Origin: Candidatus Tayloriibacteriota bacterium
GTDB lineage: Bacteria > Patescibacteriota > Minisyncoccia > Phycocordibacterales > PALSA-1337
NCBI GenBank assembly: GCA_031384385.1
Contig: JANNAN010000007.1
Coordinates: forward strand, 10,236 to 74,235
DNA: 64,000 bases
Direction of reading: 5' to 3'
In this document: piece by piece, positions 30,130 to 46,200 of the stretch
Numbering within the stretch: the stretch's first letter is position 1
How the letters are laid out: every line of letters begins with the position of its first letter
Made by a program: the position numbers and the translations under genes
Notes under the pieces: model-generated
Databases searched by the model: none
The model's input: the letters and a program-made list of their open reading frames with translations, nothing else
What the model was told of the DNA's origin: nothing

Positions 30130-32994
30130 TTATTGTATGGATTTTTTAGTAAGAGGTCCAAATATTCCTGTTGGTGATATGTTCATATTTATCTGATATT
30201 TCATAACAGCGTCGCGTGTAAAACTACCAAAGAATCCTTTGACTGTACCGACAGGGAGTATGAGATAACCTCTTGATTCAAGTAATGTTTGAAGTGATAT
30301 GACATCATCTCCTGTAAAACCGAATGAAAGATCTCTAGAATATGTACTTGTGCCTATTATAATTGGAGTAATGACAGGTGTGATAATGTTATTTGGTGTA
30401 ATATATTGAGATAATATTGTCTTACAAGTTGCAGTTCTAGTCATTGGTCCAAAATATCCCGTTGTCGGAACATTCACAATTCCTTGATGAGTCATAACCG
30501 AAGCTTTAGTGATTGCTCCAAAATATCCTTTGCTTACATTAACGGGCATTATTAAAAGTCCCTGAGATTCAAGATGGGTTTGAAGTGCGGATACTTCGAC
30601 GCCGCTATCGCCCATAGAAAGATTGCGTTCGAAATTACAACTTGCTGGTGTTATCACAACTGGCGTTGAAGCCGCAAAAGGTAAAATTATTTTCCTAATA
30701 CTACTTCCTCCTGACCTACTACTTGAAGATGAATTTGAAGATCCAACACCTGATGAGACAACTGTGGCAATAAGTCCGCGCCCTGTTCCTGATGAACCTC
30801 CACTTGAAAGATCGCCGGTAAATGGTGTTGAGCCATTAAGTATTACGATAGTTTGTCCTGAACTTGTCACACCAACATTAGCAAAACCACTATCGATACT
30901 TGTACTCAAATTGTCAAAACCAGATTTTGATACAGCGATTGATCCAGAACTTGTTGAAATAAAATAATATGCATTTGATACTGAAGTCGCAGCAGATGTT
31001 CCTCCATGAGTTACAGTCGCACCAGTCACAGCTGACCCGTTTGCATCACTGACCAATACTTTGAGAGTGTATTGTGTATCAGATAAAGTTTGAATTGATT
31101 GAGTATCTACATTGGCACTACGATTTGTGGTATCTCCAGAGGTACTTGTGACATATCCGCTTTTTGTGATGGTGATATCATTTGCAGTTCCATCTTCGCT
31201 GGTTGGTACTGGACAATATGCAATATTGGAAACAATGGTACATATAGTATTAGAAGAACCTGCAGTGACTGTTGCACCTGTTAGATTTTCTCCTGCTTCC
31301 GTTTGAAGTGTAATCTTCTGTGCAAATTGCAAACCTTGTCCACTCGCATTATTTCCTGCGGATACAGAAGATGTGAGAATAGATCCTGATCCGAAAGTGA
31401 TTGAAGTTGTGCTAGTTTGATTTGCGCTTACATTTGTAAGTCCTGTATTGTTTGTGGTTGCGGTGACATATCCGTTTTTTGCAAGAATAAGTGATCCTGA
31501 ACTGGTAGTTGTTGCCCAGTATGCGATATTTGATGTACTCGTAGAAACAGTAATACCGCCAAATGTTTTAGTCAGAAGATCAGAAATGTTAATTGCAGTT
31601 CCTAGTTCATCTGCAACAGTAACTTTTAAAGGATAACCGAAGCCGACAGTTGTCTGAATATTTCCACTTGCTTGTCCAATGCCAAATGTTTTTTGACTTG
31701 TAAGTGCTGAAATCAAATTTCCTGTGTCAGCAACAGTTCCTGCTGTCAGGTAGGCAGTATTTGCAGTCATACCATCAACAGTCACATTGTTTAAACTAAG
31801 TCTTATAGCATCATCGCCACCTCCATTTCCTGTAGTTGCGATATAGATCACATCACTTGCAACAGCTGAAGCAATGATAGATATACCACCAGATCCTGTA
31901 ATAGAAATATCAGTCGATGTAGCTCCAGGAATGCCGTTTGCGATATTTGTTATGTTTCCACCCAATTCTGATTTAAGGGCTGTAGATTTTAATGCGTATT
32001 CAAGACCTTTTAAGTTGAGCGTCTGTCCAATACTTATAGGGCTTGAGTTTATAGCATTTGCACCGAGAGTGATATTTGTTTGTCCTGTACTGTCTGCTGA
32101 TACATTTGCGAGTGCTGTGTTTGTAATGGCATTTGGAATAAATCCTGTTTTATTGATAACAATAACTTTTGACAATCCTGCACTAGGTGCAAAATAAAAG
32201 ACATTTGAAGAGGATGCAGTTTCAATTGATCCATCGAAAGTGATAGATGTTGGAGTTATACTATTTCCCAATTCATCTGCTACGCTAACTTTTACTTGAA
32301 ATAAAATATTTGTAGGAGAGATAGATCCTTGAACATCAGTAAGAGATGTTCGATTTCCGACACTTGATGAAGTATTTGTAACATAACCAGACTTTGCAAT
32401 ACTCAATGCTGCACCATCTGATGCAATAGGAACTGGACAATAAAAAATGCCTAGTGTTTGGGCTTCGATACAAACTGTTGCACCGACTCCGACCGTAGCA
32501 CCAGAAAGTGCACCCCCATCTCCTTCACGAGTGATTGTTGCTTTGTGTGCAAACTTTACCGAGTCAGAGCCAGTGAATGTGAAAGAGTTAACACTATTGA
32601 GAAGCGATTCGATGGCTCCAAGTTTTTCTTTTGTCACATAGCCGTCTTTACTCACTTGTATATCAAGGGAACTACCAACAATACATGTACCAGCATTTAA
32701 AAGGAGATTGGTAAGTGTTGTAAGATCAGTTATAGATACCACACCAGAAGAATTAGTGGTAACTCCAACATCAGTATATGATCCTGCATTACATTTTATT
32801 TTCACTATCGCTCCTTCAAGGGCAGTGGCTGAGACTGCCTCACGATTGACTGTGATAGTTAGCCCATCAGTGATGGCTGCATGAGCACTCTGTGGTGTAT
32901 ATAAAAAGTTGATAATAGAAATAAAAAATAGGACCATAAAAATAGACCCCATTCGAAACGATCCACGCGCATGTATAAAATTTTTCATTATCAT
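30130..32994 (-). CDS. Large secreted surface protein: signal peptide, at least 5 Thr/Ser/Gly-rich beta-sandwich repeats each ending in KSGYVT, and two C-terminal PG_binding_1-like peptidoglycan-binding domains
   Basis: 954 aa. Repeats: SKDGYVTKE, AKSGYVTNTSSS, AKNGYVTATTNN, TKSGYVTSTSGD. Two C-terminal ~60-aa units LS.G..G..V..LQ..LE..G.L......G.FG..T..AV...Q. An SSSSS linker is present. Confidence 0.7.
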   Translation of the reverse strand: MIMKNFIHARGSFRMGSIFMVLFFISIINFLYTPQSAHAAITDGLTITVNREAVSATALEGAIVKIKCNAGSYTDVGVTTNSSGVVSITDLTTLTNLLLNAGTCIVGSSLDIQVSKDGYVTKEKLGAIESLLNSVNSFTFTGSDSVKFAHKATITREGDGGALSGATVGVGATVCIEAQTLGIFYCPVPIASDGAALSIAKSGYVTNTSSSVGNRTSLTDVQGSISPTNILFQVKVSVADELGNSITPTSITFDGSIETASSSNVFYFAPSAGLSKVIVINKTGFIPNAITNTALANVSADSTGQTNITLGANAINSSPISIGQTLNLKGLEYALKSTALKSELGGNITNIANGIPGATSTDISITGSGGISIIASAVASDVIYIATTGNGGGDDAIRLSLNNVTVDGMTANTAYLTAGTVADTGNLISALTSQKTFGIGQASGNIQTTVGFGYPLKVTVADELGTAINISDLLTKTFGGITVSTSTSNIAYWATTTSSGSLILAKNGYVTATTNNTGLTNVSANQTSTTSITFGSGSILTSSVSAGNNASGQGLQFAQKITLQTEAGENLTGATVTAGSSNTICTIVSNIAYCPVPTSEDGTANDITITKSGYVTSTSGDTTNRSANVDTQSIQTLSDTQYTLKVLVSDANGSAVTGATVTHGGTSAATSVSNAYYFISTSSGSIAVSKSGFDNLSTSIDSGFANVGVTSSGQTIVILNGSTPFTGDLSSGGSSGTGRGLIATVVSSGVGSSNSSSSSRSGGSSIRKIILPFAASTPVVITPASCNFERNLSMGDSGVEVSALQTHLESQGLLIMPVNVSKGYFGAITKASVMTHQGIVNVPTTGYFGPMTRTATCKTILSQYITPNNIITPVITPIIIGTSTYSRDLSFGFTGDDVISLQTLLESRGYLILPVGTVKGFFGSFTRDAVMKYQINMNISPTGIFGPLTKKSIQ

Positions 32995-33130
32995 TTATTT
33001 TCCATTTTGTTTGCACGACAATATTTAAATGTACGCACAAAAAATTGATTATTAATATTTAAATTGTATCGCATATATTATAAAAAATAAATAGTTTGAA
33101 ATATAATGTGGTATAATTATCTATAAAAAT

Positions 33131-33613
33131 ATGAGTATTCATCCAAAAGTAAGTATTGGTCATGTACATTTAACAGTCGCTGATCTAGATCGATCACTTA
33201 GGTTCTACCGAGATCTTTTGGGGTTTGAAGTAACAACATGGTATGGAGATTCTGCAGTGTTCCTATCAGCAGGAGGATATCATCATCATATTGGATTGAA
33301 TACATGGGCAGGAAAAGATAGTACATCTGCTCCTAAGGGACATACAGGCTTGTATCATTTTGCAATTCTTTTTCCCACAAGAAAAGAATTAGCTAAGATT
33401 GTTAAGAAATTATTGGATAGTAATTATCAAATAGATGGATCAGCAGATCATGGCGTATCTGAAGCAATATATATTCGTGATTCTGATAATAATGGAGTTG
33501 AATTGTATGTCGACAGGCCGCGTGAGATGTGGAAGAAGGGTTCGGACGGCAAGTTCATAATGGAAACTTTGCCTCTCGATCTTAAAAAGTTACTTGAGGA
33601 AATTGATAATTAA
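33131..33613 (+). CDS. VOC-family (glyoxalase/bleomycin-resistance/dioxygenase fold) protein
   Basis: IGHVHLTVADLDRSLRFYRDLLGFEV, a typical VOC N-terminal module. Confidence 0.7.
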   Translation: MSIHPKVSIGHVHLTVADLDRSLRFYRDLLGFEVTTWYGDSAVFLSAGGYHHHIGLNTWAGKDSTSAPKGHTGLYHFAILFPTRKELAKIVKKLLDSNYQIDGSADHGVSEAIYIRDSDNNGVELYVDRPREMWKKGSDGKFIMETLPLDLKKLLEEIDN

Positions 33614-33938
33614 TTTTTAAGATAAATAATTAGGTGTGTATAAATTAAAAATCCTTACTAAGGTAAGCATATTAATTTCACTTCAAATATTCAGGAGGCA
33701 AAATAATCTTCATCTTTTCGAATCCTAATGCGACGCCAGCAGAGGCGTCGTTCCTTCTGTGAATTAAAAATAGGCACATACACCGCGTTTTTTAATTGCT
33801 CGACATGGTGCGGGATATCGGAACCTTTTGGAAGACAAACAAAGAGCATATTTGGCTACCGAATATCAGGCAGGGTTTCTTTGGGATAGTACGACCAACG
33901 GACAAGGAAATGGCGAAATATCGCTAAATTACCGAAAG

Positions 33939-34160
33939 TGCATAGTGCAGTATGCGAAAAATACCTTTTCTGCATAGTACAGCGTGATGAGTATGCAAAA
34001 AAGGCAAATTTTGACCACTAAATACACTGTACTGGTCAAAAAGTACGTTTTTTGACCAGTACAACGTGTGAAGTGTACAAAAAAGGTAATTCTGTCCAGT
34101 AAAACAGGTTTGTTGGACAAAATCGGTACTTTTTGTCCAGTTGAGCGATGGTCCCAAGCT
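33939..34160. repeat. Array of ~5.5 direct repeat units (~40 bp, alternating two unit types), each containing an imperfect palindrome (TGACCAGTA...TACTGGTCA / TGTCCAG...TGGACA / TGCATAG...TATGCA) followed by AAAAAG(G/T)AC...TTTT
   Basis: Read directly: units at ~33939, 33971, 34013, 34054, 34094, 34135. The array shares a GTCCAGTAAAA/AAAAAGTA core with the 42760-43140 array. Confidence 0.6.
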
Positions 34161-34666
34161 TATTTCGGCCTGTCTCCCTTCAACAATCTCTCAAAAGCCT
34201 CAAGGTTCCCCATAGCATCATGCACTGGATGATGATCGTGCTTTGTTATACTTAGCCTTTTCCAAGATGAGGCGTCTTTGAAGTCTCCGATTAAGCCAGC
34301 ATAAAAATCACCGATTCTTCTAGCAGAATATCCAAATGGATTTCTGCCTAGGGTTCGATGAAAACTATCATTGATCCACTGCCAGTCAAAAGCAGGATTG
34401 TCACTGACAAATTTAGGTCTCTCCTCGCCGCTTATTTCTTGTAGCCAGGCATCAAACTTTTTGAACACCTCCACTTCATCAAAGACCACGCCGGTCGCCA
34501 CTTTGATATTAGAATCTTCATTAGAAGGCTTTCGTTCTACCAAGACGCCATGAAAAGTAGCCTTCGATGGATATGCAACCGCACCAAATTCAGTAAGTTG
34601 TCCCATACTCGGACACTTACCGTTTGCCTCACAATCTACAAAGATTAAATTTTTTAGACTTTCCAT
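34160..34666 (-). CDS. DEDDh 3'-5' exonuclease domain protein (DnaQ epsilon-like)
   Basis: Exo I FVDCEANG, Exo II SDNPAFDWQWI and Exo III HHPVHDAMGNLEAF (H-x4-D). Confidence 0.65.
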   Translation of the reverse strand: MESLKNLIFVDCEANGKCPSMGQLTEFGAVAYPSKATFHGVLVERKPSNEDSNIKVATGVVFDEVEVFKKFDAWLQEISGEERPKFVSDNPAFDWQWINDSFHRTLGRNPFGYSARRIGDFYAGLIGDFKDASSWKRLSITKHDHHPVHDAMGNLEAFERLLKGDRPK

Positions 34667-34740
34667 ACCTATAGTTTAGCTTCAGATCCAAAATTTATGA
34701 AGCCCCCTCAAACTCTTGATGACCACTTATCCACATTTAA

Positions 34741-34823
34741 GTTTGAATACATTGATTGACTGGATGTATCCAAACATGTATACTTTGAATACATTATAAA
34801 AAAGATGTATACAAACATGAATT
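34741..34823. repeat. 42-bp direct repeat x2 (TTTGAATACATT-N8-GATGTATnCAAACATG) in the divergent promoter region, extending over the Fic start codon
   Basis: Unit 1 at 34741-34782 and unit 2 at 34783-34823. Both carry short TGTAT/ATACA inverted elements. Confidence 0.5.
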
Positions 34824-35959
34824 CTATCCAAATTGGCGAACTAAAAGAGCAGAAAGAAGGCTTCAAAGCTTTCATCCCAGGATCTTTTCCTCCGAAAGGC
34901 GGCTTTGAATTTGACCCTAAAATCGTAAAGAAAAGCGATGAGGCTACCCGTTTGCTCGGAAAGCTCGACGGCATCACTAAGCTTTTGCCAGATGCAGATT
35001 TTTTCTTGCTTATGTACTTGAGAAAAGATGCTGCATCATCAAGTCAGATCGAGGGTACAATGGCAACAATGGTTGATGCTATTGAAGCTGAAGTTCAGTC
35101 AAGCACAAAGATTCCGGAAGATGTAGATGATATTTTGCATTACATTAAAGCACTCAATTATGGAATGGAGCGGGTACAACAGGACAATTTTCCTATCTCG
35201 CTGAGGTTCATTCGAGAGCTACATAAGCAATTGATGGATAAGGCGCGCACTACACACTTCTCAGACCCAGGTGAGTTTAGGAAAACTCAAAACTGGATTG
35301 GTGGCACTCGTCCCGACAATGCTCGATTTGTTCCTCCACCGGTTGATGACATGAATAATGCACTGACTGATCTGGAAAAGTTCATGCACACTGACGATCC
35401 GACACTTACTTTGATCAAAGCGGCTCTTGTTCATGCCCAGTTTGAAACTATTCACCCGTTTCTAGATGGAAATGGCAGGACGGGCCGTATGCTTATAACC
35501 TTTTATTTATGGAAGGAAGGTTATCTCGAAAGACCGGTATTGTTTTTGTCATCCTTCTTTAAGAAGCACCAAAAAGTGTACTACGAGAGACTCTTCGGCT
35601 ATCACTTTGGTAATGCCGCGGAATGGGTTGATTTCTTTCTCGACGGCGTAATAGAGATCGCGAATGAAGCAATTGAAATTGTTTCGAAGATAACCGCACT
35701 CCGTGAAAAGGATGTCGTGAAGATACAGACGCTCGGTAAACGTGCTTCAGAAAGTGCGGTCCTTGTGCTGCCTAAATTGTATGGACAGCCAATTGTAAAT
35801 GTCTCCTTGATTCAAAAATGGACAGGGTTTAATCGTGCCGCATCTCAAACTGTAATCAAACGCTTTATAGACATGGGTATTCTTACTCCTAAGGATAAAG
35901 ATAAGAAGTATGGCAAATCATACATATACAAGAAATATGTAGATATTTTCTCTGAATAA
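34805..35959 (+). CDS. Fic/Doc-family protein (AMPylator-type Fido domain) with a C-terminal winged-helix
   Basis: Canonical Fic motif HPFLDGNGRTGRML. The start may instead be the ATG at 34817. Confidence 0.85.
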   Translation: MYTNMNSIQIGELKEQKEGFKAFIPGSFPPKGGFEFDPKIVKKSDEATRLLGKLDGITKLLPDADFFLLMYLRKDAASSSQIEGTMATMVDAIEAEVQSSTKIPEDVDDILHYIKALNYGMERVQQDNFPISLRFIRELHKQLMDKARTTHFSDPGEFRKTQNWIGGTRPDNARFVPPPVDDMNNALTDLEKFMHTDDPTLTLIKAALVHAQFETIHPFLDGNGRTGRMLITFYLWKEGYLERPVLFLSSFFKKHQKVYYERLFGYHFGNAAEWVDFFLDGVIEIANEAIEIVSKITALREKDVVKIQTLGKRASESAVLVLPKLYGQPIVNVSLIQKWTGFNRAASQTVIKRFIDMGILTPKDKDKKYGKSYIYKKYVDIFSE

Positions 35960-35964
35960 AATCT

Positions 35965-36153
35965 ATGAATCCCGTTGCAAACCAAAACCAAAAAGAAACC
36001 TATATCAAGTGCAGGAAATGCGGCACTGAGGTTTTTACCATTACAAATGGTGGTTTAATTCCATGTAAATGCGGTGCTATTTCCGTTGATGGCTCTACAG
36101 ACCTCGTGAGGGTACTTGGTAATCCCGAGGACTACGAGGAAATACAAAAATAA
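35965..36153 (+). CDS. Small zinc-ribbon protein (62 aa)
   Basis: CRKCG...CKCG. Lies between Fic and the RM gene. Confidence 0.35.
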   Translation: MNPVANQNQKETYIKCRKCGTEVFTITNGGLIPCKCGAISVDGSTDLVRVLGNPEDYEEIQK

Positions 36154-36157
36154 TTAT

Positions 36158-38833
36158 ATGAATCCTGTCGAACTTCAAGAAAATTTAGAGGATCTAACTG
36201 AAAACCTTTCGCGAGAAACGTTTATTTTTGAATTGTTGACAGCATACAGGTTGCCAAAAAGCACAGTCAGTCTTCTTAAGAAGAGTCCTTCTAAGTTATC
36301 TGGAAATAACAATCAAATTATTTTAAAAAATAAGGTCCTATTTCAAGCAACTACAATTGAGGAAGATGAGCATATTGTTATAGATAATCTCCAAAAAGAC
36401 AAAAATACATTTAGATACAACCCGAGATTTTTGATTGTTACTGATTTTCAAACATTACTTGCAGTAGATACCAAAACAAAAGAGACCCTAGATATCAAAA
36501 TAAATGACTTAGGGAGATACTATACCTTTTTCTTACCATGGGCAGGAATGGAGAAGGCACAACACGTAAACGAAAATCCTGCGGATATTCGTGCCGCAAG
36601 CAAGATGGCTAAGCTGTATGATCAAATAATAAAGGATAATCCCAATCACACTGAAAACGGACTCTATGATTTAAATGTTTTCCTATCACGGCTACTTTTT
36701 TGTTTTTTTGCTGAAGATACGGGGATATTCAAAAAGGGATTATTTACAAATTCGATTGATTCCAACACTCAAATATCAGGAGACGGCATTGGTGATTATT
36801 TCGACTCACTTTTTGATGTTTTAAATACAAAAGATACAGAGAGGTCGTCTTTTGCACATCATTTTACAGAATTTCCATATGTAAACGGCGGGCTGTTTGA
36901 AAAAAAGATCAAACTACCTATTTTTACTGCTAACTCACGTAGATTGATAATTGAGTGTGGGAAACTAGGTTGGGATGCTATCAATCCTGATATCTTCGGA
37001 TCAATGATCCAAGCGGTGGTTCATCCTGGTCAAAGAGAGAATCTGGGAATGCACTACACTTCTGTTCCGAATATAATGAAAGTCATTGAACCTCTTTTTC
37101 TAAATGATTTATATGATGAACTAGAAAATTCAAAAGATGATATTAAAAAACTAACAAAGCTACGAGAGCGTATATCAAAGATTAAAATATTTGATCCTGC
37201 TTGTGGCTCCGGTAATTTCCTGATTATTTCATATAAGGAATTATCAAAATTAGAATCAAAAATAATTGGTTGTGCTAAGGACATAGGACATCAAATGATG
37301 CCCTATTCAGGTGTGTCTCTAAACTCTTTTTATGGAATAGAGATAGATGATTTTGCACACGAGATTGCAAGGCTTTCATTGTGGCTTGCTCAGCACCAGA
37401 TGAATACCTATTTTGATGATCTGTTTGGAATGATGAAACCTACACTACCCCTCAAAGAGAGCGGAATAATTGTATGTAAAAATGCTGCAAGGATTGACTG
37501 GAATGTAGTGTGTCCTCGCATTGATTATAAAAATGAGAAATTTGAAATTTATATGGTCGGTAACCCACCATATCTAGGGTTCTTGCAACAGAAAGCTGAA
37601 CAAAAAAAAGACATGGATTTAGTTTTACCATTGGTTAATGGATATAGAAAACTAGATTACATCTCTTGCTGGTTCTATAAAGCAGCAGAATACATCTCAG
37701 AATCATTTGATATAAAAATTGCCTTTGTATCAACTAATTCGACTTCGCAAGGAGAACAGGCCTCTATTTTCTGGCCTGAAATATTCAAAATGAATGTCGA
37801 AATATTCTTCGCATACCAATCATTTAAATGGCAGAATAATGCCAAAAATAATGCTGGCGTTACCTGTGTGATTATTGGCTTGAGGAAAGTATCAAGTAAA
37901 CCAAAGTATTTATATGTTGATAATTTAAAAACTAGCGCAACAAATATAAACGCTTACTTAGCAAATTCAAGTAATGTCGTTGTTACCAAGAGAACAAAAC
38001 CGCTTTCAAATCTACCAACCATGGATCTTGGTAGTGCGGCGTATGATGGAGGTTACTTGATGCTTACTCAGGAAGAACGCAACGCCTTTATCAGTAATTC
38101 ACCTAAATCAGAGGATTTCATTAAACCTTTCATGGGATCAGCGGAGTTTATACGAAACATAAAAAGATATTGTATTTGGATTGAAGATAAAGATTCAGTT
38201 GAGGCAACTAAAATTCCAGATATTAAAAATAGATTAGAAATAGTAAAACTTTTTAGAGAAAAAAGCGGAAGAGGAAAAACACTTGAGACTGCTGAGACCC
38301 CCTATAAATTTACAGAAATAAGATATAAAAAAGCTCCAGCAATTATTGCACCGATCATTTCTTCTGAGACAAGAGAATATATACCTTTTGGTTTTATAAA
38401 GGAGGGTATCGTTGTGCCAAATTCAGCAAGAATTATATATAATTCTGAACCTCATATTTTTGCAATCATAACTTCTAGAATGCATATGGTATGGGTCCGC
38501 GCTGTTGCGGGCAGATTAAAAACTGATATTAGATACTCAGGAACGATTTGCTATAACACCTTTCCGTTTCCCTCAATTACTCTTCAACAAAAAGAAGAAC
38601 TTACTGGCCATGTTTACAATATCTTAGGTGAGCGAGAAAAATATCCCAATAGAACAATGGCAGAACTCTATGATCCAGATAAGATGCCAGATGGATTAAA
38701 AGTTGCGCATAAATATCTCGATACAGCAATTGACCAAATATATAGAAGTAAACCATTTGAAAATGACGAGAGCCGACTGTCGCATCTATTTAAACTCTAC
38801 GAAGAAATGATTATTAATGAAACAAACCAATAA
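36158..38833 (+). CDS. MmeI-like Type IIL/IIG restriction-modification fusion enzyme: N-terminal putative PD-DxK nuclease, gamma-class N6-adenine methyltransferase and a C-terminal target-recognition region
   Basis: MTase motif I KIFDPACGSGNFLI and motif IV VGNPPYLG. The YVNGGLF helical-domain motif is present. N-terminal D...VDTK is a possible PD-(D/E)xK. About 890 aa. ATG 36158 is preferred over the TTG-extended ORF at 36116. Confidence 0.7.
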   Translation: MNPVELQENLEDLTENLSRETFIFELLTAYRLPKSTVSLLKKSPSKLSGNNNQIILKNKVLFQATTIEEDEHIVIDNLQKDKNTFRYNPRFLIVTDFQTLLAVDTKTKETLDIKINDLGRYYTFFLPWAGMEKAQHVNENPADIRAASKMAKLYDQIIKDNPNHTENGLYDLNVFLSRLLFCFFAEDTGIFKKGLFTNSIDSNTQISGDGIGDYFDSLFDVLNTKDTERSSFAHHFTEFPYVNGGLFEKKIKLPIFTANSRRLIIECGKLGWDAINPDIFGSMIQAVVHPGQRENLGMHYTSVPNIMKVIEPLFLNDLYDELENSKDDIKKLTKLRERISKIKIFDPACGSGNFLIISYKELSKLESKIIGCAKDIGHQMMPYSGVSLNSFYGIEIDDFAHEIARLSLWLAQHQMNTYFDDLFGMMKPTLPLKESGIIVCKNAARIDWNVVCPRIDYKNEKFEIYMVGNPPYLGFLQQKAEQKKDMDLVLPLVNGYRKLDYISCWFYKAAEYISESFDIKIAFVSTNSTSQGEQASIFWPEIFKMNVEIFFAYQSFKWQNNAKNNAGVTCVIIGLRKVSSKPKYLYVDNLKTSATNINAYLANSSNVVVTKRTKPLSNLPTMDLGSAAYDGGYLMLTQEERNAFISNSPKSEDFIKPFMGSAEFIRNIKRYCIWIEDKDSVEATKIPDIKNRLEIVKLFREKSGRGKTLETAETPYKFTEIRYKKAPAIIAPIISSETREYIPFGFIKEGIVVPNSARIIYNSEPHIFAIITSRMHMVWVRAVAGRLKTDIRYSGTICYNTFPFPSITLQQKEELTGHVYNILGEREKYPNRTMAELYDPDKMPDGLKVAHKYLDTAIDQIYRSKPFENDESRLSHLFKLYEEMIINETNQ

Positions 38834-40784
38834 ATTCATGAAAACAATTCAAGTAGCGGAAGCTACATACAAACAAACCGGAGAAAGTACAAAAATAAAT
38901 GAACTTGGAATGCGCGAAATGCAGGCTAAAGCATTTGAAAAACGTACTGCTCAATACCTACTTTTAAAAGCACCTCCAGCTTCAGGAAAGTCTCGTGCGC
39001 TGATGTTCCTTGCACTCGATAAGTTACAGAATCAAAATATCAAAAAAGTTATTGTTGCTGTTCCAGAAAAAACAATTGGTGGATCTTTCAGTGATACAAA
39101 TCTCAAAACTGAAGGTTTCTTTGCTGACTGGAAATTAAATGACGATTATAACTTGTGTACGCCAGGTACCGATGGTAGCAGTAGCAAGGTCCAAGCCTTT
39201 AAAAACTTTATGGACAATAACGAGAAGGTTCTTGTTTGCACCCACGCAACTTTGAGATTTGCCTGCGAACAGATCGAGGATTCAAAATTTAATGATACTT
39301 TGATTGCTATTGATGAATTTCACCATGTCTCTGCGGACAAAGAGAGTAGTACGCTTGGGCGCGTTTTACATGGAATAATGACTAATTCAAGTGCTCACGT
39401 GATTGCAATGACAGGATCTTATTTTAGAGGTGATGGTGTGGCGGTCCTATTACCTCAGGATGAAGAAAAATTTACAAAAGTTACGTATAACTATTACCAG
39501 CAACTCAACGGATATAATTTTTTGAAGTCGCTTGGTATCGGGTACCATTTTTATCAAGGTAAATATACATCAGCAATCAGTGAGGTTCTTGATACAAACA
39601 AAAAAACGATACTACATATTCCAAATGTTAATTCAGGTGAATCAACAAAAGATAAACTAAACGAGGTCGATCTTATTTTAGATATTATTGGCGAAGTAGA
39701 TCATCAAGATCATGATACTGGGGTTATTTACGTAAAAAGAGACGGAGACAGCAAGATATTAAAAGTCGCTAACCTTGTGGATGATTCTGTAGACCGTGAA
39801 AAAATATCAGGATATCTAAGGACAATGAAGAAGGAAGACGACATGGACATTATTATTGCACTTGGTATGGCAAAGGAAGGTTTTGATTGGCCATACTGTG
39901 AGCACGCTCTTACTGTCGGCTACCGAAGCTCTTTAACAGAGATCATTCAAATAATCGGTCGCTGCACTCGTGATAGTTCAAATAAGACACATGCTCAATT
40001 TACAAATCTTATTGCTCAGCCAGACGCACAAGATAGTCAGGTAAAGATATCAGTCAACAATATGCTTAAGGCAATTACATGCTCGCTACTCATGGAGCAA
40101 GTAATGGCCCCTCATTACAATTTTAAACCAAAGTTTCCGAATGACGGTACCGACTTTATCCCTGGTGAAATAAAAATAAATGGATTTAAAGAGCCGAGTT
40201 CAGACAGAGTAAGAGAAATTATTGAATCAGATATCAATGATCTCAAGGCTTCAATTTTACAGGACGACCAGATCGTAAGAGCCCTTCCTGGTAATGTTGA
40301 TCCAGAAGTTATAAACAAAGTAATGATCCCAAAGATTATTCGGATCAAGTACCCTGATCTGAGTGATCTTGAGGTTGAAGAAGTGAGACAGCATGTAGTT
40401 GTTGATTCTGTAATCAAGAATGGCGAAATAAAAGAAATCGGAGATAAACGTTTTGTTAGAATGGCAGGACAATTTGTAAATATTGATGAACTTAACATAG
40501 ACCTTATCGATAGGATAAACCCATTCCAGGAAGCCTTTGAGATACTTTCAAAATCAGTCACATCAAATATACTAAAAGTCATTCAGGATACAATCGACTC
40601 ATCAAGAATTGAAATGACTCCTGAGGAGGTTAGAATCCTATGGCCTAAGGCGAAAGAGTTTAAAGAAAGAACTGGTCGAGTCCCAGAACTTAACTCTGCG
40701 GACCCTCTGGAAAAGCGTTTAGCAGAGGCGTTGGTATACTTGAGAAAGATAAAAGTTGAACAAGCAAACAATAAGCATGAGTAA
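38817..40784 (+). CDS. SF2 DExH-box helicase (restriction Res-subunit-like ATPase) lacking its own nuclease domain
   Basis: Walker A APPASGKSRA, DExH box AIDEFHHV and motif VI QIIGRCTRD. The start overlaps the upstream gene by 17 nt (alternative ATG at 38838). Confidence 0.8.
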   Translation: MKQTNKFMKTIQVAEATYKQTGESTKINELGMREMQAKAFEKRTAQYLLLKAPPASGKSRALMFLALDKLQNQNIKKVIVAVPEKTIGGSFSDTNLKTEGFFADWKLNDDYNLCTPGTDGSSSKVQAFKNFMDNNEKVLVCTHATLRFACEQIEDSKFNDTLIAIDEFHHVSADKESSTLGRVLHGIMTNSSAHVIAMTGSYFRGDGVAVLLPQDEEKFTKVTYNYYQQLNGYNFLKSLGIGYHFYQGKYTSAISEVLDTNKKTILHIPNVNSGESTKDKLNEVDLILDIIGEVDHQDHDTGVIYVKRDGDSKILKVANLVDDSVDREKISGYLRTMKKEDDMDIIIALGMAKEGFDWPYCEHALTVGYRSSLTEIIQIIGRCTRDSSNKTHAQFTNLIAQPDAQDSQVKISVNNMLKAITCSLLMEQVMAPHYNFKPKFPNDGTDFIPGEIKINGFKEPSSDRVREIIESDINDLKASILQDDQIVRALPGNVDPEVINKVMIPKIIRIKYPDLSDLEVEEVRQHVVVDSVIKNGEIKEIGDKRFVRMAGQFVNIDELNIDLIDRINPFQEAFEILSKSVTSNILKVIQDTIDSSRIEMTPEEVRILWPKAKEFKERTGRVPELNSADPLEKRLAEALVYLRKIKVEQANNKHE

Positions 40785-41925
40785 CGATAATTTATTAGAT
40801 TTGATAAATGACGATGATTCCGGACTTCTTGATATTAAAGAGAAGGCTATTTCTATCACCCCAGACGATCGATTATTAGAATCATTTATGGAGATTAATG
40901 ACTTTTTTAAAACTCATAACTCAGAGCCAAAATCTGGTGGTGATATTCACGAGCACAAGCTTTCTTCAAGGTTGAAACATATCAGGGAAAATAAAGATCT
41001 CAAAGAATTTTTATCGAAGTATGATACATATAAACTATTAGCCGTAAGTACTAAGAATTTAGAGACCGTTAGTGATATCTTTGAAGATGATAGTCTTGGC
41101 CTGCTATCAGTTGAAGATACGTCAATTTTTAACATAACAAATGTTCCTGAAGTAGACAAAGATCGTTCGGATCCCGATTTTATTGCCAAGAGAGAAAGAG
41201 TTGTTGATTTTGAAAAATATAAGCATTTGTTTGATCAGTGTCAGAGAGAACTAAAAAACGGAACTAAAAAAATATCAAGTTTTGTTGAGGGTGAAATGAA
41301 AAAAGGTGACTTCTTTGTTTTAAGTGGAGTACTTGTGTATCTTGAGGACATCTTCAACCCTTACAGAGGTAATAGTCAGAAAATAAACCGAAGAACAAGA
41401 TGTATTTATGAAAACGGCACAGAATCAAATGTCTTACTGAGATCTCTTGGAAAGAGACTGTCTGAAGTCGGATATGCTGTTAAGGACAACGACCCGATGC
41501 CTGAAATTGATACCGACGATAAAGAAACTGGATATATTTATGTTTTAAAATCACTCAGTATGGATCCTAGAATTAATAGTACAAGAAATCTTTTTAAGAT
41601 TGGTTTTTCTACCATAACCGTTGAAGAAAGAATTAAAAATGCTGATCAGGATCCTACTTATCTTATGGCACCTGTTTCTATTGTGGCAACCTATAGGTGC
41701 TTTAACATGAACCCTCAAAGACTTGAAAGATTACTTCACCGATTCTTTACTGACTCATGTCTTGATATCGAAATAACTGATAAAAGCGGAAATAAATATA
41801 CTCCCAAGGAATGGTTCGTAGCGCCGATTGTTGTTGTCGAGAAAGTTATAGACCTAATCATAAAGGGAGATATCGTTAATTATGTATATGACAAAAGTAC
41901 TGAAAAAGTCATTTTAAATCAATAA
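40777..41925 (+). CDS. T5orf172/MUG113-type (GIY-YIG superfamily) domain protein
   Basis: GYIYVLKS...(17 aa)...KIGFSTITVEERI matches the T5orf172 pattern GyvYvl...KIGxT...R. The ATG overlaps the helicase stop (ATGAGTAA). The six-frame ORF is extended to 40756 by TTG. Confidence 0.55.
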   Translation: MSNDNLLDLINDDDSGLLDIKEKAISITPDDRLLESFMEINDFFKTHNSEPKSGGDIHEHKLSSRLKHIRENKDLKEFLSKYDTYKLLAVSTKNLETVSDIFEDDSLGLLSVEDTSIFNITNVPEVDKDRSDPDFIAKRERVVDFEKYKHLFDQCQRELKNGTKKISSFVEGEMKKGDFFVLSGVLVYLEDIFNPYRGNSQKINRRTRCIYENGTESNVLLRSLGKRLSEVGYAVKDNDPMPEIDTDDKETGYIYVLKSLSMDPRINSTRNLFKIGFSTITVEERIKNADQDPTYLMAPVSIVATYRCFNMNPQRLERLLHRFFTDSCLDIEITDKSGNKYTPKEWFVAPIVVVEKVIDLIIKGDIVNYVYDKSTEKVILNQ

Positions 41926-41928
41926 AGA

Positions 41929-42654
41929 TTGTTCATGAAAAATATAGAAGAAGGACTCAAAGAGATCTACGAAAATATAAGAAAATTAGAATCCTTAATA
42001 AATACTAAAAATGATCTTACTAGGATACATAAGGACAATGTATTTAATAGGAGATTTTCTGTTGTTCTCAGTGATTTTTCTGATCTTGAAACTATAGGAA
42101 TGAGACTTAATAAAAACATACCTGAAGTTGAGACTTTACAGAGGATTATACAAAAACGCTTCAAGTCCGAAGATAAGGACAGAATTACAGATGAAGGTCA
42201 AAGACTGCACCAAGAATCGGATAAGATTAATCGAGAAAATCAGGTAGATTTCAAATGTTTATATATTTTTTCAAAGATATTTCTTGATCAATATACTACT
42301 CTAATCAAATTATTATTTAATTGGCGAGGTATTGGCGACAAGTCAATTACAAGTTTTTATAATAGCCTAGAAAAATATAAAGGAGAGGAAGAACAGATCA
42401 TTTCTTTTAAAGATAGTTGCTTAAAAAGACTTAAAGCAATTGATGTTTTTGTAACAGAATACCGTGATCAATATGTTGTGCATGATCAAACTAAACATAA
42501 AGATACAAGATGGTTTTTAAATGATATGACGGGCAGTGTTAGATTTATTGGTGGTAGGCCATCAATAACACCACAGGAGTTGGTTTTTGTTGTTTCTAAT
42601 TATATTAAGGACTCCGTCACCTTTATAAAAGATCAAGAAAGCACCCTGAATTAG
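41929..42654 (+). CDS. Hypothetical protein (241 aa), last gene of the four-gene cluster
   Basis: Starts 4 nt after the T5orf172 gene on the same strand. No recognisable motifs. Confidence 0.5.
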   Translation: MFMKNIEEGLKEIYENIRKLESLINTKNDLTRIHKDNVFNRRFSVVLSDFSDLETIGMRLNKNIPEVETLQRIIQKRFKSEDKDRITDEGQRLHQESDKINRENQVDFKCLYIFSKIFLDQYTTLIKLLFNWRGIGDKSITSFYNSLEKYKGEEEQIISFKDSCLKRLKAIDVFVTEYRDQYVVHDQTKHKDTRWFLNDMTGSVRFIGGRPSITPQELVFVVSNYIKDSVTFIKDQESTLN

Positions 42655-42759
42655 GGCCTAAATTGCCCTGTGTACGCTTTTCCAAGCCTATTCAGGGCTT
42701 TTTACGTGTCTTGGCCAATACCCACTAATTTGCACTAATTCCGACCCCATACTTACTGG

Positions 42760-43140
42760 GTCCTGGGAAATTGATTGCACACACTTTTCAACATTTTTAG
42801 CGCCTCATACTATGTGGGTCCAGTAAAAAAGTAGAAATTGACTCCGCACGATTTTCCACGTTTTTACCAGGACATACTTATAGGATCCAAAGAGATAAAA
42901 GTAATTCCTACAGTTAGGAACTTTATACACCTTAGGATAAACCCATAATCTTAGGCCTAAAAAGTAATGCACCATATTTTGCATTTTTTAGAGCCTAGGA
43001 TTAAGTAGTTCTCTGGTCCGAAGTAATTCCTGCAATTAGTGAATTACAAGACCTCAGAATAGACAAATCGGATGACCCAAAAGTAATGCACGTAATTTTG
43101 CATTAAATAAGGTCTACGATACATACATTCCCATTGCACG
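42760..43140. repeat. About six degenerate tandem repeats of ~65 bp (GGRTCC..AAAAGTAR..ATT..GCAC..TTTT..AGGNCT), iteron-like
   Basis: Units begin near 42760, 42819, 42886, 42953, 43016 and 43073. Examples: TAATGCACCATATTTTGCATTTTTTAGAGCCTAGGA vs TAATGCACGTAATTTTGCATTAAATAAGGTCTACGA. Confidence 0.6.
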
Positions 43141-43185
43141 GAAAGAGCTGAGTCAACTTGCAATGGGGACTCAGCTCTTTCTGTT
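43126..43185 (+). promoter_or_regulatory. Two interleaved inverted repeats (CCCATTGCA...TGCAATGGG and AGAGCTGAGTC...GACTCAGCTCT), a pseudoknot-like or alternative-hairpin element followed by CTGTTTTC
   Basis: The arms are ordered a-b-a'-b' with 9-bp and 11-bp stems, immediately upstream of or overlapping the 43163 ORF start. Confidence 0.45.
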
Positions 43186-43510
43186 TTCAAAAAGAGCCAG
43201 CTCGATAAAGGTCGAAAGAAAAACCCTCATGCTTACCAAACACGCACTAGAAGAATACAAAGAAATACATCGCCAGGAAACCGGCGCGGTTTTTCCTGAT
43301 GACGTGTTGGCTAATGAGGCAATTAACTTGCTTACTCTTTTTAACTTTGTCTATCGACCGATCAAAAAAGAGTGGCTGAAAGAATATGGACGACAAAATA
43401 AATCTAAACGAGGAATGGCAGAGAATTCTCAGTCAGAAGAACAAATCGCCGAAACGAGTGGCGAAGTTCGAAGAATTCAAAAAGACCCATCTCGAACAAA
43501 CCAGGAGTGA
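43163..43510 (+). CDS. Small hypothetical protein (115 aa). Overlaps the next ORF in another frame, so possibly not real.
   Basis: ORF only. The start lies inside the hairpin element. Confidence 0.25.
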   Translation: MGTQLFLFSKRASSIKVERKTLMLTKHALEEYKEIHRQETGAVFPDDVLANEAINLLTLFNFVYRPIKKEWLKEYGRQNKSKRGMAENSQSEEQIAETSGEVRRIQKDPSRTNQE

Positions 43511-44375
43511 AATAAATCCGGACACACTTCGCAGTAAGAAAAAGCCTAACAGGTTTGTTGTCGATAACGAGTATGTCAAAGGTTATTATCTGGCGAAATT
43601 TCCACCGGTCTGTTCCCAGGTGCTTTTGACGTTACTTGTCCACTGCAATCTCAATAGACAGGATGCGTTTCCGAGCATTGTCACTATTCAAGAACTCTCC
43701 GGATGTACCAACACTCGAAGTGTCATTAGTGCTCTTAGGATTCTTGAGGCCTACGGGATAATTAACATTCGTCGGTCCAAGAGAGGGGTAAAAGCAGTGA
43801 ATGTCTATTTCTTTCAGTCGGTCCGACATTGGAGACCACTCTCAAAGAGCATGAAAAAGATTAAGCTCACCGATCCATTACCGCAATGGCAAAATCCCGT
43901 CCAGAGCACTGGCAGAAAACAGACCTATCGTACTGGCCCTACTGCCAGTCTAACTAACCTAAGAGAAAACTATAATAATAAAATACAAAATATTGGAGAT
44001 ATTTTAAGGGAAAGATTCAAAATGCCAGAAGACCCGTCTAAGGTTGCTATTCCTACACCTTCTAGCAATACTGTCGTCGATGACAAAAAGGCAGAAGACA
44101 TGGAACCTGATACGCCTGTTAGAACAGGTGAAAAACAAGGGTATCGTACTGGCACTAATGCCACTACGATTGATACCCGTAATAACGGGAAATTAACGGG
44201 AACCGAAAGTCAGAGACATGGCATGTCATCAGCCGTTTATAAACGGGAAATAACGGTCGAAAAACCTCCCGAGGATCCATTTGTAAATGGTGAAAAATGG
44301 ACTAAGGAAGATGAGGGTATCGGTCTGATGAATATCAACAATGAAGATATCGGACCAGGAAGCGCAACATTATAA
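43386..44375 (+). CDS. Winged-helix DNA-binding protein, plasmid/phage replication-initiator-like (Rep-type HTH)
   Basis: LLTLLVHCNLNRQDAFPSIVTIQELSGCTNTRSVISALRILEAYGIINIRR is a typical replication-protein winged-helix. C-terminal repeated ...TGxKQxYRTG... motifs. Located downstream of the iteron-like array. Confidence 0.5.
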   Translation: MDDKINLNEEWQRILSQKNKSPKRVAKFEEFKKTHLEQTRSEINPDTLRSKKKPNRFVVDNEYVKGYYLAKFPPVCSQVLLTLLVHCNLNRQDAFPSIVTIQELSGCTNTRSVISALRILEAYGIINIRRSKRGVKAVNVYFFQSVRHWRPLSKSMKKIKLTDPLPQWQNPVQSTGRKQTYRTGPTASLTNLRENYNNKIQNIGDILRERFKMPEDPSKVAIPTPSSNTVVDDKKAEDMEPDTPVRTGEKQGYRTGTNATTIDTRNNGKLTGTESQRHGMSSAVYKREITVEKPPEDPFVNGEKWTKEDEGIGLMNINNEDIGPGSATL

Positions 44376-44380
44376 AAACT

Positions 44381-46042
44381 ATGAATAATAAAATACCCAC
44401 AATCAAATACTTCCTCTACGCTAGAAAATCTAGTGAAGCGGAAGACAGACAAGCGGCATCAATCGATGCCCAGAAAGATGAACTCTTAAAGATTGCACAA
44501 GAGCAAGGTTTAACCATTGTTGAGATTCTTACCGAATCACAGTCAGCTAAGAAACCAGGAAGACCGATATTCAACAAGATGCTTGAGCGAATCTACAAAG
44601 GCGAAGCAAATGGAATCATTTGTTGGAAGTTGGACCGACTTGCTCGTAACCCAGTAGATGGCGGGCAGATAAGCTGGATGTTACAGCAGAGTGCGATCGC
44701 ACAGATCGTTACGTTCGGCCGAACATACTATCCGACTGATAACGTTCTCATGATGCAGGTTGAGCTTGGAATGGCGAATCAATACATCCGAGACTTGTCG
44801 GTAAACGTAAAGCGAGGACTGGCAAAGAAGGTCCGAGAAGGCTGGCTACCAAGTATGTGTCCAGTCGGGTACATGAGTACACCTGACAGAGAAAAGGGAT
44901 TCAAGACAATCATGAAGGACCCTGATAGATTTCCTGTAGTAAAAAGATTGTTCGATTTAATGCTCAGTGGTAATTACAGCACCTGCCAAATATGGGACGT
45001 GGCTCGTAAGGAGTTGAATCTGAAAACATATCAGCGCAGACATATGGGTGGCAAACATCTTTCCAAAAGTGGTATCTATGCACTCTTGAGCAATCCTTTC
45101 TACTACGGCTGGTTTGAATATCCCTACAAGAGCGGAGAATGGCACAAAGGTGCGCATGAGGCCATGATCACCGAAGAAGAATTCAACAAGGTCCAGATCA
45201 TTATGGGTAGGACTATGCAACCTCGGCCAAGACCAGAGCGCAACTTTGCATTTACTTCACTCATGAAATGTGGCACGTGTGGCTGTAGCATTACTGCTCA
45301 GGCGAAAGTAAAACGCCAGAAGAACGGCAACGTCCACCACTACGTTTATTACAATTGCACCAAGAAAAAAGTAGACGTGAAGTGTCCCGAGCAATGTCTC
45401 GAACTCAAGAACCTCGAACTAGATATCAAAGGCAAGCTAAGCGAGATCACTATTTCAGAAAGATTCAAAGACTGGGCGATCAAGCACCTCCATGAACTCC
45501 GAAAGACGGAAGTCGATAGCGACACCTTGGTCTTTAAGGGCAAACACAAAGAGCTTGAGGAGGTAACAAAGAATTTGCAGTCACTCACGCTCAACTTCAC
45601 CTCACCTAAAAACAGCGAAAGAGCGATAATTACAGACGAAGAATACCAAACTCTCAAAGTTGGAATGGTGAAAAAGAAATTGATCCTCGAAGACGAACTG
45701 AAAGTAAAAAATAAAGAGGTTTTGGAATGGATAGACCTCACCGAGCAGACCTTTGACTTTGCCTGCTATGCCCACATTTGGTTTGAAAAAGGAGACGATA
45801 AAGCCAAAAGAGCGATACTTGCATGTTTAGGCTCGAACCTCACCCTAAAAGGCAAAAAGGTCTTTGTAAATTACCATTCTTTCGTAAAGACACTCATAAA
45901 AAGTCGTCAGGCGGTTGAAGACGAATTAGAGAAGGTTAGAACCTCCAAAGTATCAAGCAATAAAAGACAAAACCCCACAAATTGTGAGGTTTCGTCACTA
46001 GGGCTCCGGCGGCAGGGATCGAACCTGCGACCTTTCCGTTAA
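44381..46042 (+). CDS. Large serine recombinase (integrase). The 3' end overlaps tRNA-Asn on the opposite strand.
   Basis: N-terminal resolvase domain YARKSSEAEDRQAASIDAQ (Ser nucleophile region), a recombinase domain, a zinc ribbon (CGTCGC...YYNCTKKK..C..C) and a C-terminal coiled-coil. 553 aa. Confidence 0.85.
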   Translation: MNNKIPTIKYFLYARKSSEAEDRQAASIDAQKDELLKIAQEQGLTIVEILTESQSAKKPGRPIFNKMLERIYKGEANGIICWKLDRLARNPVDGGQISWMLQQSAIAQIVTFGRTYYPTDNVLMMQVELGMANQYIRDLSVNVKRGLAKKVREGWLPSMCPVGYMSTPDREKGFKTIMKDPDRFPVVKRLFDLMLSGNYSTCQIWDVARKELNLKTYQRRHMGGKHLSKSGIYALLSNPFYYGWFEYPYKSGEWHKGAHEAMITEEEFNKVQIIMGRTMQPRPRPERNFAFTSLMKCGTCGCSITAQAKVKRQKNGNVHHYVYYNCTKKKVDVKCPEQCLELKNLELDIKGKLSEITISERFKDWAIKHLHELRKTEVDSDTLVFKGKHKELEEVTKNLQSLTLNFTSPKNSERAIITDEEYQTLKVGMVKKKLILEDELKVKNKEVLEWIDLTEQTFDFACYAHIWFEKGDDKAKRAILACLGSNLTLKGKKVFVNYHSFVKTLIKSRQAVEDELEKVRTSKVSSNKRQNPTNCEVSSLGLRRQGSNLRPFR

Positions 46043-46075
46043 CAGCGGATTGCTCTACCTCTGAGCTACACCGGA
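46004..46075 (-). tRNA. tRNA-Asn (anticodon GTT)
   Basis: Manual fold on the minus strand: 7-bp acceptor stem (one G-U pair), D arm GCTC-AGAGGTA-GAGC, anticodon loop CTGTTAA, 5-nt variable loop, T arm GCAGG-TTCGATC-CCTGC, discriminator G. No encoded CCA. Confidence 0.8.
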
Positions 46076-46200
46076 ATGTGTATTAATTTCGTTCCTTTTG
46101 TTAAGAACATAAGTATACTATCAGATATATATATAAAAGTGAAGATAAAATAGATTATTATAAATAATAATAAAAGATTATTTGAGCTAGATTTTAAACA

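Follow-up and report, generated by a model that had tools for sequence, protein, structure and literature searches.

A plasmid-like integrative element at the 3′ end of tRNA-Asn, with a probable attP inside its own large serine recombinase gene

The tRNA-Asn locus and its two junctions

We analyzed a 64,000-nucleotide stretch of contig JANNAN010000007.1 (assembly GCA_031384385.1), hereafter the window, in which a block of genes of mixed function adjoins a gene for tRNA-Asn(GTT). At the right end of this block, the gene for a large serine recombinase (LSR) reads into the tRNA gene from the opposite strand, and a short stretch at the far left end proved to be the detached remainder of the same recombinase gene. 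The features that define the recombinase, its target and the two junctions are listed below, where attL and attR denote the left and right junctions, attP and attB the attachment sites of the element and the host, and P/P′ and B/B′ their respective arms. Loci of relatives and database proteins carry L and P numbers, respectively.

33798..33801, no strand: attL core GCTC, with host flank on its left and the element on its right (left-end alignments and the attP of L007)
33802..33927, plus strand: P′ arm of attP, also the LSR gene's detached 3′ end, 41 codons (DMVRDIGTFWKTNKEHIWLPNIRQGFFGIVRPTDKEMAKYR) with the stop codon at 33925-33927; contains GGGATATCGGAACCT at 33812-33826
44381..46042, plus strand: LSR, integrated isoform, 553 aa (Pfam, PHROG integrase, junction table, homologue C-termini)
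45956..45996, minus strand: predicted intrinsic terminator of tRNA-Asn, antisense within the LSR 3′ end and P arm (terminator scan: 14-pair stem and T-run)
46003..46006, no strand: attR core GCTC, corresponding to tRNA nucleotides 71-73 plus one trailer base, with host-specific tRNA sequence beyond
46004..46075, minus strand: intact tRNA-Asn(GTT), forming the B′ arm of attB (Rfam 66.1 bits, equal to the identical tRNA in L010-L012; ARAGORN 46001-46076)

The integrated element occupies 33802-46006 (12,205 bp), and its ends share a core of only 4 bp, GCTC, with copies at 33798-33801 and 46003-46006. In alignments of left ends, conservation begins immediately to the right of GCTC: non-conserved host DNA precedes the core, which is followed by GACATGGTGCGGGATATCGGAACC. 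The right end reads …GGTTTCGTCACTAGGGCTC and then passes into tRNA sequence that varies by host. This 19-nt P-arm end was matched exactly in 35 loci, that of the window being identical to 34 others. When the window was compared by blastn with four relatives, just two blocks were conserved, namely the backbone at 42638-46032 and the short stretch at 33797-33931. A repeat search did not find the tRNA duplicated as a direct repeat at the left end. The true repeat is the 4-bp duplication, as expected for a serine recombinase, and the tRNA-Asn sequence is unaltered by the insertion. The crossover is thereby located to the 4-bp GCTC and not to a single dinucleotide.

A first-pass annotation, made from the nucleotide sequence alone, had proposed a recently acquired integrative element or plasmid remnant between 33640 and 46075. 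Its placement of an integrated element beside tRNA-Asn stands, while the true ends are 33798/33802 and 46006. The description as a remnant does not, because the ends, the Rep-like gene, the LSR and the detached LSR tail are all intact. The rise in GC content that it reported across the block is real (38.2% in the element and 31.8% in the remainder of the window); the GC-richest 12.2-kb segment within the 64 kb begins at 33501, and tetranucleotide deviation is maximal at 42-46 kb. Comparison with the Rfam tRNA also bore out a 553-aa recombinase gene ending inside the opposite-strand tRNA-Asn with a 39-nt overlap. The overlap has this length because the LSR stop codon is the reverse complement of anticodon-loop bases.

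The recombinase

The enzyme is a large serine recombinase rather than a short resolvase or invertase, and both of its junctions could be resolved to 4 bp. It contains a Resolvase domain (PF00239, 3.7e-22, residues 11-154), a Recombinase domain (PF07508, 7e-9) and a zinc ribbon (Zn_ribbon_recom, PF13408, 1e-5). In a 53-sequence alignment, residues Y13, R15, K16 and S17, which include the R-x-S nucleophile motif, were invariant, as were the zinc-ribbon cysteines C298, C301, C327 and C336. The protein matched the SPbeta integrase structure in the Protein Data Bank (1.4e-10) and is at most 27% identical to any phage LSR. By its domains and the checkable features of its attachment sites, the predicted enzyme fits a large serine recombinase.

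An AlphaFold2 (AF2) model of the homologue P0023 shows the canonical LSR fold to approximately residue 521, with helices at 361-408 and 420-471 (coiled coil 361-471). The last confident helix covers residues 501-521, and residues 521-574 are of low confidence. In the window's LSR, residues 1-542 of 553 are encoded by the element, while the last 11 (RRQGSNLRPFR) are antisense tRNA sequence. An exchange of C-termini upon integration affects only residues after position 542, in a protein of up to 583 residues, and lies past the last confident helix, which in this model would spare all recognizable domains.

attP lies within the recombinase gene

Joining the right end of the element to its left end extends the LSR open reading frame (ORF) by 41 codons, such that …SSLGL is followed by DMVRDIGTFWKTNKEHIWLPNIRQGFFGIVRPTDKEMAKYR and a stop codon. 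The LSR reconstructed in this attP state is 583 aa. The same arrangement exists in relatives. For example, L007 is collinear with the window such that 43331-46007 runs directly into 33798-33932, and the tail is contiguous with the LSR ORF in L007, L038 and P0023. The database proteins P0023 (584 aa) and P0008 (582 aa) bear the predicted tails, and P0155 is likewise fused in frame. The sites reconstructed from the two junctions are …CACTAGGGCTC joined to GACATGGTGCGG… for attP and …TTTTTTAATTGCTC joined to CGGCGGCAGGG… for attB.

We compared 7 copies of the tail, 5 of which came from the left ends of integrated or LSR-less elements. The frame was open to the same stop in 7/7 copies, and the start codon was not conserved. 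Variable columns among the 41 codons fell mostly at codon position 3 (32, compared with 14 at position 1 and 17 at position 2). Pairwise ratios of nonsynonymous to synonymous substitution (dN/dS) were 0.05-0.3, including for codons 10-41, which lie past any attachment site. This purifying selection suggests that the tail is functional in the attP state. Judged from these sequence comparisons, selection maintains the tail as part of the recombinase, and only an intact attP would allow it to be produced.

These results also bear on a tRNA-like motif that the first-pass annotation had placed at 33822-33838 as a possible core of the attachment site. The motif exists, but as GGGATATCGGAACCT at 33812-33826. 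It is not a core or a duplicated tRNA fragment; it belongs to the P′ arm of attP and encodes the LSR tail residues R-D-I-G-T.

Attachment-site arms and the tRNA terminator

Counting from the base after GCTC, the motif GAAC(C) lies at +20-24 in P′ and at +15-19 in every tRNA B′ arm. Its position at +20-24 was shared by five P′ types (window, L006, L033, L039, and L051). For the LI integrase, the motif bound by the zinc-ribbon domain occupies base pairs 16-24 in attP and 11-19 in attB, a 5-bp inward shift (PMC3783163). The 5-bp shift of GAAC between P′ and B′ agrees with this rule (PMC3783163), and the T-loop likeness of the P′ motif would follow from the recombinase reading that motif in attB as well, 5 bp nearer the crossover. 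GAACC keeps its position in the DNA while the encoded residues differ (G-T in the window type, R-T in L033), which indicates a constraint at the DNA level. The B arm, formed by the host trailer, shows no conservation.

On the tRNA strand, the sequence just past the tRNA 3′ end folds into a GC-rich hairpin, and TTTTGTCTTTT comes next (window 45996 down to 45956). Most of the family members that we folded, including those at other tRNA targets, share a hairpin with a TTTGTCTTTT-type T-run, and their stems differ by compensatory changes. RNAalifold recovered only 3 pairs for the P-arm hairpin, because the register is off by one column between subgroups; folds of single sequences were clearer. The unoccupied-looking sites in L012 and L094 have their own hairpin and T-run at the same position. 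One stretch of approximately 45 nt thus appears to combine LSR codons, the P arm and a predicted terminator that would keep the tRNA transcript from extending, in antisense, into the element.

A family of elements in related hosts

Close relatives of the LSR are numerous in metagenomes, with sources assigned to Ca. Brennerbacteria, Yonathbacteria, Paceibacterota and the Parcubacteria group. Their contigs carry the same backbone (small ORF, Rep, LSR) adjoining hpf-fmt-def-priA, and the same site holds other cargo in L001, L002, L003, L005 and L018. Across relatives, this cargo includes other restriction-modification systems, Fic, GmrSD, methyltransferases and redox genes. Our tally of the family covered 93 loci, 13 fetched earlier and 80 from a metagenome scan. 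The LSR stop codon lay inside an antisense tRNA in 37 of the 93, the window included. The targets among these 37 were tRNA-Asn in 28 and otherwise Ser, Leu, Arg, Trp and His, the LSRs at these other tRNAs being 42-50% identical. The wider family spans 42-95% LSR identity and several tRNAs with the same geometry.

Approximately 25 loci are of the attP type. Their tails share (D/E)(D/E)(V/I)RT, and a tRNA stood beside the LSR in 0/25. Complete attP-type contigs measured 9-16 kb, and integrated elements 7-12 kb. A search for left ends in other integrated loci by regular expression found none, and blastn-short added only L025; most elements are probably longer than the 10-kb flank.

In every LSR relative of at least 90% identity, the shared sequence ends precisely after …SSLGL, and what comes next varies widely. 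The sequences joined at this point include other tails, a Ste14-like gene and LSR-less islands at the same tRNA, and they may reflect LSR-mediated exchange at pseudo-sites, which would deposit or swap cargo modules. One such join is that of P0125 (cluster of P0001), a >90% identical LSR fused in frame after …SSLGL to a Ste14-like membrane methyltransferase, and it points to recombination at a pseudo-site other than a tRNA. That nested or pseudo-site recombination occurs is clear.

A tRNA scan of species-representative genomes found the identical tRNA in two Ca. Taylorbacteria metagenome-assembled genomes (MAGs). One of them, represented by L011, has priA-def-fmt-hpf-tRNA in the same order, and the fmt genes of L011 and the window are 74% identical. 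The identical tRNA, the fmt identity and the synteny therefore indicate a Taylorbacteria-like host within the candidate phyla radiation (CPR).

Three side observations concern the target and its surroundings. L011, whose tRNA-Asn is identical, encodes a second LSR (4349-6049, minus strand; 566 aa, 25% identical) at this GCTC site, and that gene too runs into the tRNA but uses a different frame. As this LSR is unrelated, the geometry recurs in a distant LSR lineage. The tRNA-Asn of some related hosts holds a group I intron in the anticodon loop (L002 11702-11978 and L003 11695-11932; RF00028, 92 and 73 bits), and the same is likely for L016, L026 and L035. ARAGORN misses the tRNAs of L002 and L003 because of this intron, into which the LSR ORF there continues. 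Lastly, the host-side flank contains a 20-nt copy of the tRNA-Asn 3′ end, approximately 170 nt that are partly conserved, and a P-arm-like hairpin (L002 4440-4595; L012 3790-3950 and ~2445-2642; window 33708-33725). An Rfam scan of the conserved host-flank stretch gave only chance-level matches, and the stretch may be debris of an older insertion or a small repeat element.

Proposed mechanism

Taken together, we consider it very likely that the window holds an intact 12.2-kb integrative plasmid-like element at the 3′ end of tRNA-Asn, with attP located within the LSR gene. In attP, the ~45 nt of coding sequence that precede codon 542 form the P arm; the core GCTC comes next, and the 41 codons after it form the P′ arm. 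Integration would occur by a 2-bp staggered serine-recombinase exchange within GCTC. It would leave the tRNA intact, and the native tRNA terminator would be replaced by the one encoded antisense in the P arm. The 41-codon tail would be carried to the far end of the element, so that a 553-aa enzyme with 11 tRNA-antisense residues would be made instead of one of 583 aa. The LSR zinc-ribbon domain probably recognizes the tRNA T-arm (GATCGAACC) and the same GAAC motif 5 bp farther out in P′. Once excised, the element would replicate by means of Rep and the iterons, and cargo may be swapped between elements as modules.

Several observations weigh against this model. The Rep assignment rests on weak similarity, and the P and P′ arms are asymmetric. 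The AF2 model is uninformative for the LSR tail (predicted local distance difference test score, pLDDT, <50), with few attP-type sequences in its alignment. The check that the first-pass annotation had proposed, for an empty site in close relatives, yielded no clean example; the site in L012 seems unoccupied yet holds unexplained debris. A search of all loci for the terminal redundancy of a circular contig found none. Look-ups of exact proteins, including the flanking VOC and hpf products, returned only integrated contigs of the same sample and no excised form of this element. Finally, P0155 lies in L094 (99.5% identical to L006), where the attP-type junction is chromosomal, 3.5 kb from tRNA-Asn and beside an LSR-less segment.

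Because the L094/L006 junction is chromosomal, attP-type contigs are no proof of free circles, and their use as such is weakened. L007 and L038 tile as a circular permutation of approximately 11.8 kb, which would fit either a circle or a head-to-tail concatemer. For the element in the window, a free circle is what we infer. L010, a candidate for an empty site, was rejected: an attL-like junction is present, with an intact tail located 5 kb away from the tRNA, but Rep and LSR are missing.

Two of these loci deserve description in their own right. L010 (1631-6670) is an LSR-less island that consists of the attL-like junction, the intact 41-codon tail, 5 kb of cargo (sigma and anti-sigma factors and an NYN-like protein) and then …AAAAT, GCTC and the tRNA. 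L094 (2262-7662, as in L006) has the full-length attP-type LSR gene within a 148-kb chromosomal contig. The order there is LSR, a helix-turn-helix (HTH) gene, thioredoxin, DsbD/Msr genes, att-half-site-like fragments, a hairpin, GCTC and finally tRNA-Asn, which amounts to nesting or a tandem array.

Alternative explanations

The locus could instead be an immobilized genomic island, a decayed remnant unable to excise whose recombinase is truncated because the element is dead. The integrated LSR does lack its native 41-aa tail, LSR-less islands occur at this tRNA (L010 and, in L094, the 3.5-kb segment), and the exact-protein look-ups did not return an excised form. We nevertheless regard decay as unlikely, given that all LSR domains and invariant residues are intact, the detached tail is open and under purifying selection, the P-arm end is the one found in 34 other loci, and the Rep is 94% identical to that of the attP-type locus L007. 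A prophage or phage satellite is barely credible. Integrases at tRNA genes are typical of prophages, the LSR matches a PHROG integrase family, and IMG/VR includes a distant member of the family, L013 (same contig as L079). Yet 12.2 kb is too small for a prophage, the backbone consists of Rep and iterons, and scans of the main ORFs with Pfam, PADLOC and PHROG (8 proteins for PHROG) revealed no virion, packaging or lysis genes, specifically no capsid, portal, terminase or tail genes.

Two further alternatives concern the parts of the model rather than the whole. The left block at 33798-33931 might be kept only as DNA (an attachment site, a promoter or a duplicated tRNA fragment) and not as recombinase protein. 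Its first ~26 bp must indeed serve as P′ arm, and the constant position of GAACC despite differing residues (G-T in the window, R-T in L033) reflects selection on DNA. However, conservation extends over 126 bp with a synonymous-substitution pattern and a dN/dS of 0.05-0.25 for codons 10-41, the stop position is identical in all copies, and P0023, P0008 and P0155 show the block fused in frame to the LSR, so we judge a DNA-only role very improbable. It is somewhat less improbable, though still not favored, that chromosomal arrays, tandem or nested, are the sole source of attP-type junctions, a second element having inserted into a resident attR or attL without any free replicating circle in the life cycle. 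Such arrays would account for the full-length LSR gene in the chromosome of L094/L006, beside an LSR-less segment and att-half-site debris, and for the lack of any terminally redundant contig. They would account less well for the lack of a tRNA beside the LSR in all 25 attP-type loci, for complete attP-type contigs (9-16 kb) near the size of integrated elements (7-12 kb), for the circular tiling of L007 with L038, or for a conserved Rep/iteron module that has no obvious role absent episomal replication.

As an extension of the split-gene model, the tail swap could be a built-in sensor of state, in which the 583-aa and 553-aa isoforms differ in activity or direction, accompanied by LSR-mediated shuffling of cargo at pseudo-sites. 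We offer this only tentatively. As one example, the full-length form might integrate while the truncated form might excise without a directionality factor, or be locked. A sensor of this kind would replace or supplement a directionality factor, and pseudo-site exchange, if true, would provide genome-reduced CPR bacteria with a system for shuffling cargo.

Replication backbone, cargo and flanking genes

The remaining features of the element, from left to right, are as follows.

33957..34141, no strand: AT-rich hairpins/inverted repeats TGGTCAAAAA...TTTTTGACCA, between the tail stop and the exonuclease gene (repeat search)
34160..34666, minus strand: DEDDh-type 3′-5′ exonuclease, cargo (PADLOC exonuclease effector, 7.6e-16; Pfam Rv2179c-like under cutoff)
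34805..35959, plus strand: Fic_N + Fic protein of SoFic type, cargo (Pfam 1e-20; PADLOC SoFic 1.3e-109)
35965..36153, plus strand: DUF7695 ORF of 62 aa after Fic (Pfam annotation already available for L005, L007 and the same-sample contig L008, the last of which matches this part of the window)
36116..38833, plus strand: MmeI-family type IIG restriction-modification enzyme, cargo (matches to each of the five MmeI domains in Pfam; PADLOC REase_MTase_IIG 4.7e-301)
38817..40784, plus strand: ResIII/DEAD helicase, cargo, its ends overlapping both neighbors (Pfam, PHROG DNA helicase)
40756..41925, plus strand: T5orf172/MUG113 (GIY-YIG-like) domain protein, cargo (Pfam 5.8e-13 and 2.8e-12)
41929..42654, plus strand: ORF of 241 aa without a family match in Pfam, PADLOC or PHROGs
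42638..43133, no strand: conserved non-coding block (42638-42890) followed by iteron-like units (42892-43133), a putative origin (blastn, repeat search)
43163..43510, plus strand: small conserved backbone ORF, ~89 aa in relatives, directly upstream of Rep in L001, L002, L005, L006 and L094
43386..44375, plus strand: Rep-like HTH_36 protein (Pfam HTH_36 25.7 bits, cutoff 25; PHROG 'replication initiation protein' 6e-7)

These assignments match the cargo that the first-pass annotation had described, namely a Rep-like gene behind iteron-like repeats, Fic, an exonuclease and a restriction-modification/helicase cluster (Pfam, PADLOC, PHROG). Three cargo proteins matched PADLOC defense models (SoFic, REase_MTase_IIG, and the exonuclease effector), and by these matches the element is predicted to carry defense-gene cargo. 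The iteron-like repeats comprise four units of ~60 bp that begin with AAGTAAT and share 61-73% mutual identity; Tandem Repeats Finder does not detect them. From 42638 onward, the backbone block is 73-91% identical to L001, L002 and L003 by blastn, and the Rep/iteron module is kept in all relatives compared in this way. The Rep proteins of the window and L007 share 94% identity. Pfam scans of the main ORFs of at least 115 aa revealed no relaxase, type IV secretion system (T4SS) or FtsK-like transfer protein, nor was an oriT found, and no candidate for a recombination directionality factor was recognized among the backbone ORFs.

Within the backbone, the non-coding block at 42638-42890 is 81-91% identical to L001 and L003, a higher identity than in many coding parts of the backbone; candidate roles are an origin, a promoter or a small RNA. 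The hairpin cluster at 33957-34141 (TGGTCAAAAA-N-TTTTTGACCA and variants) is not kept in other elements and may represent terminators or a site for protein binding. The pair of Fic and the 62-aa DUF7695 ORF recurs (window 34805-36153, L005 551-1940, L007 3799-5188) while the remaining cargo differs, and the two may form a two-gene module.

The first-pass annotation had taken conserved housekeeping genes to resume on both sides. On the right, hpf-fmt-def-priA is indeed syntenic in relatives. On the left, the genes for the VOC protein and the 954-aa protein are not, and the 954-aa ORF has no homology to the similarly positioned 974-aa ORF in L003. Both left-flank genes (30130-33613) are GC-rich for this genome (38.7% for the 954-aa PG_binding_1 protein, 37.1% for the VOC/glyoxalase protein), and this flank may itself be acquired DNA.

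Comparison with known systems

The recombinase resembles the phiC31, Bxb1, A118/LI and SPbeta SprA integrases in having resolvase catalytic and recombinase domains and a zinc ribbon with a long coiled coil. Also as in the large serine integrases of phages and those of integrative and conjugative elements (ICEs), its attachment sites are short, share few bp of identity and show the 5-bp shift of the zinc-ribbon-domain motif between attP and attB. In contrast to those systems, the target here is a tRNA 3′ end, attP lies in the integrase ORF, the P arm doubles as the tRNA terminator, the B arm is not conserved and no directionality factor was recognized in the backbone ORFs. A 2020 survey noted that use of tRNA genes by serine integrases had not been reported (Mageeney et al. 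2020, PMC7192596); the present family indicates that serine integrases can specialize on them.

The closest parallel for the gene geometry is the 'suicidal' integrases of the SSV type (SSV1, pTN3, pT26-2), in which attP also lies in the integrase ORF, the target is a tRNA and integration partitions the gene. This gene disruption has been proposed as a control of directionality (PMC7253208), and integrases with attP inside their own gene have so far been described as restricted to archaea (Badel et al. 2020, PMC7253208). The SSV-type enzymes are tyrosine recombinases that are split into two inactive halves, whereas here a bacterial serine recombinase exchanges only a 41-aa C-terminal tail. The arrangement previously described as restricted to archaeal tyrosine integrases would thus extend to a bacterial serine integrase.

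A gene whose C-terminus reports the integrated or free state is also known from integration-dependent immunity in mycobacteriophage BPs, where attP in the repressor gene gives a state-dependent C-terminus (PMC4557955). The affected gene in BPs codes for the repressor, the phage integrase belongs to the tyrosine recombinases, and the tail that is lost is an ssrA-like degron; in the present element it is the recombinase itself that changes, and its tail has no recognizable degron. If the tail swap does set directionality, it would be a new and simple switch of relevance to LSR-based genome engineering. The 45 nt of the P arm, with their three roles, are in addition an example of overlapping constraints.

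Mobile elements and genetic tools of CPR/Patescibacteria are almost unknown. In the literature that we searched, we found no published description of this CPR element family; as coverage was incomplete, a prior description is possible. The family is widespread and appears undescribed. It may offer a compact native replicon together with an integrase whose ~50-bp sites are precisely delimited within a universal target, the T-arm and acceptor end of a tRNA, and its variable cargo marks these elements as vehicles of defense genes in streamlined symbionts.

In overall organization, the integrative plasmids of actinomycetes (actinomycete ICEs, or AICEs, e.g. pSAM2 and SLP1) bring together a replication module, variable cargo and, at the tRNA-proximal end, a site-specific recombinase. 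The element described here is similarly small and, with a putative replication module, a tRNA-proximal recombinase and variable cargo, resembles both AICEs and the tycheposons of Prochlorococcus. Among tycheposons, 27 of 937 carry an LSR (bioRxiv 10.1101/2020.12.28.424599). No FtsK-like transfer, primase-helicase or packaging gene was found in the present element, and its recombinase family, host phylum and split-gene geometry set it apart from both groups.

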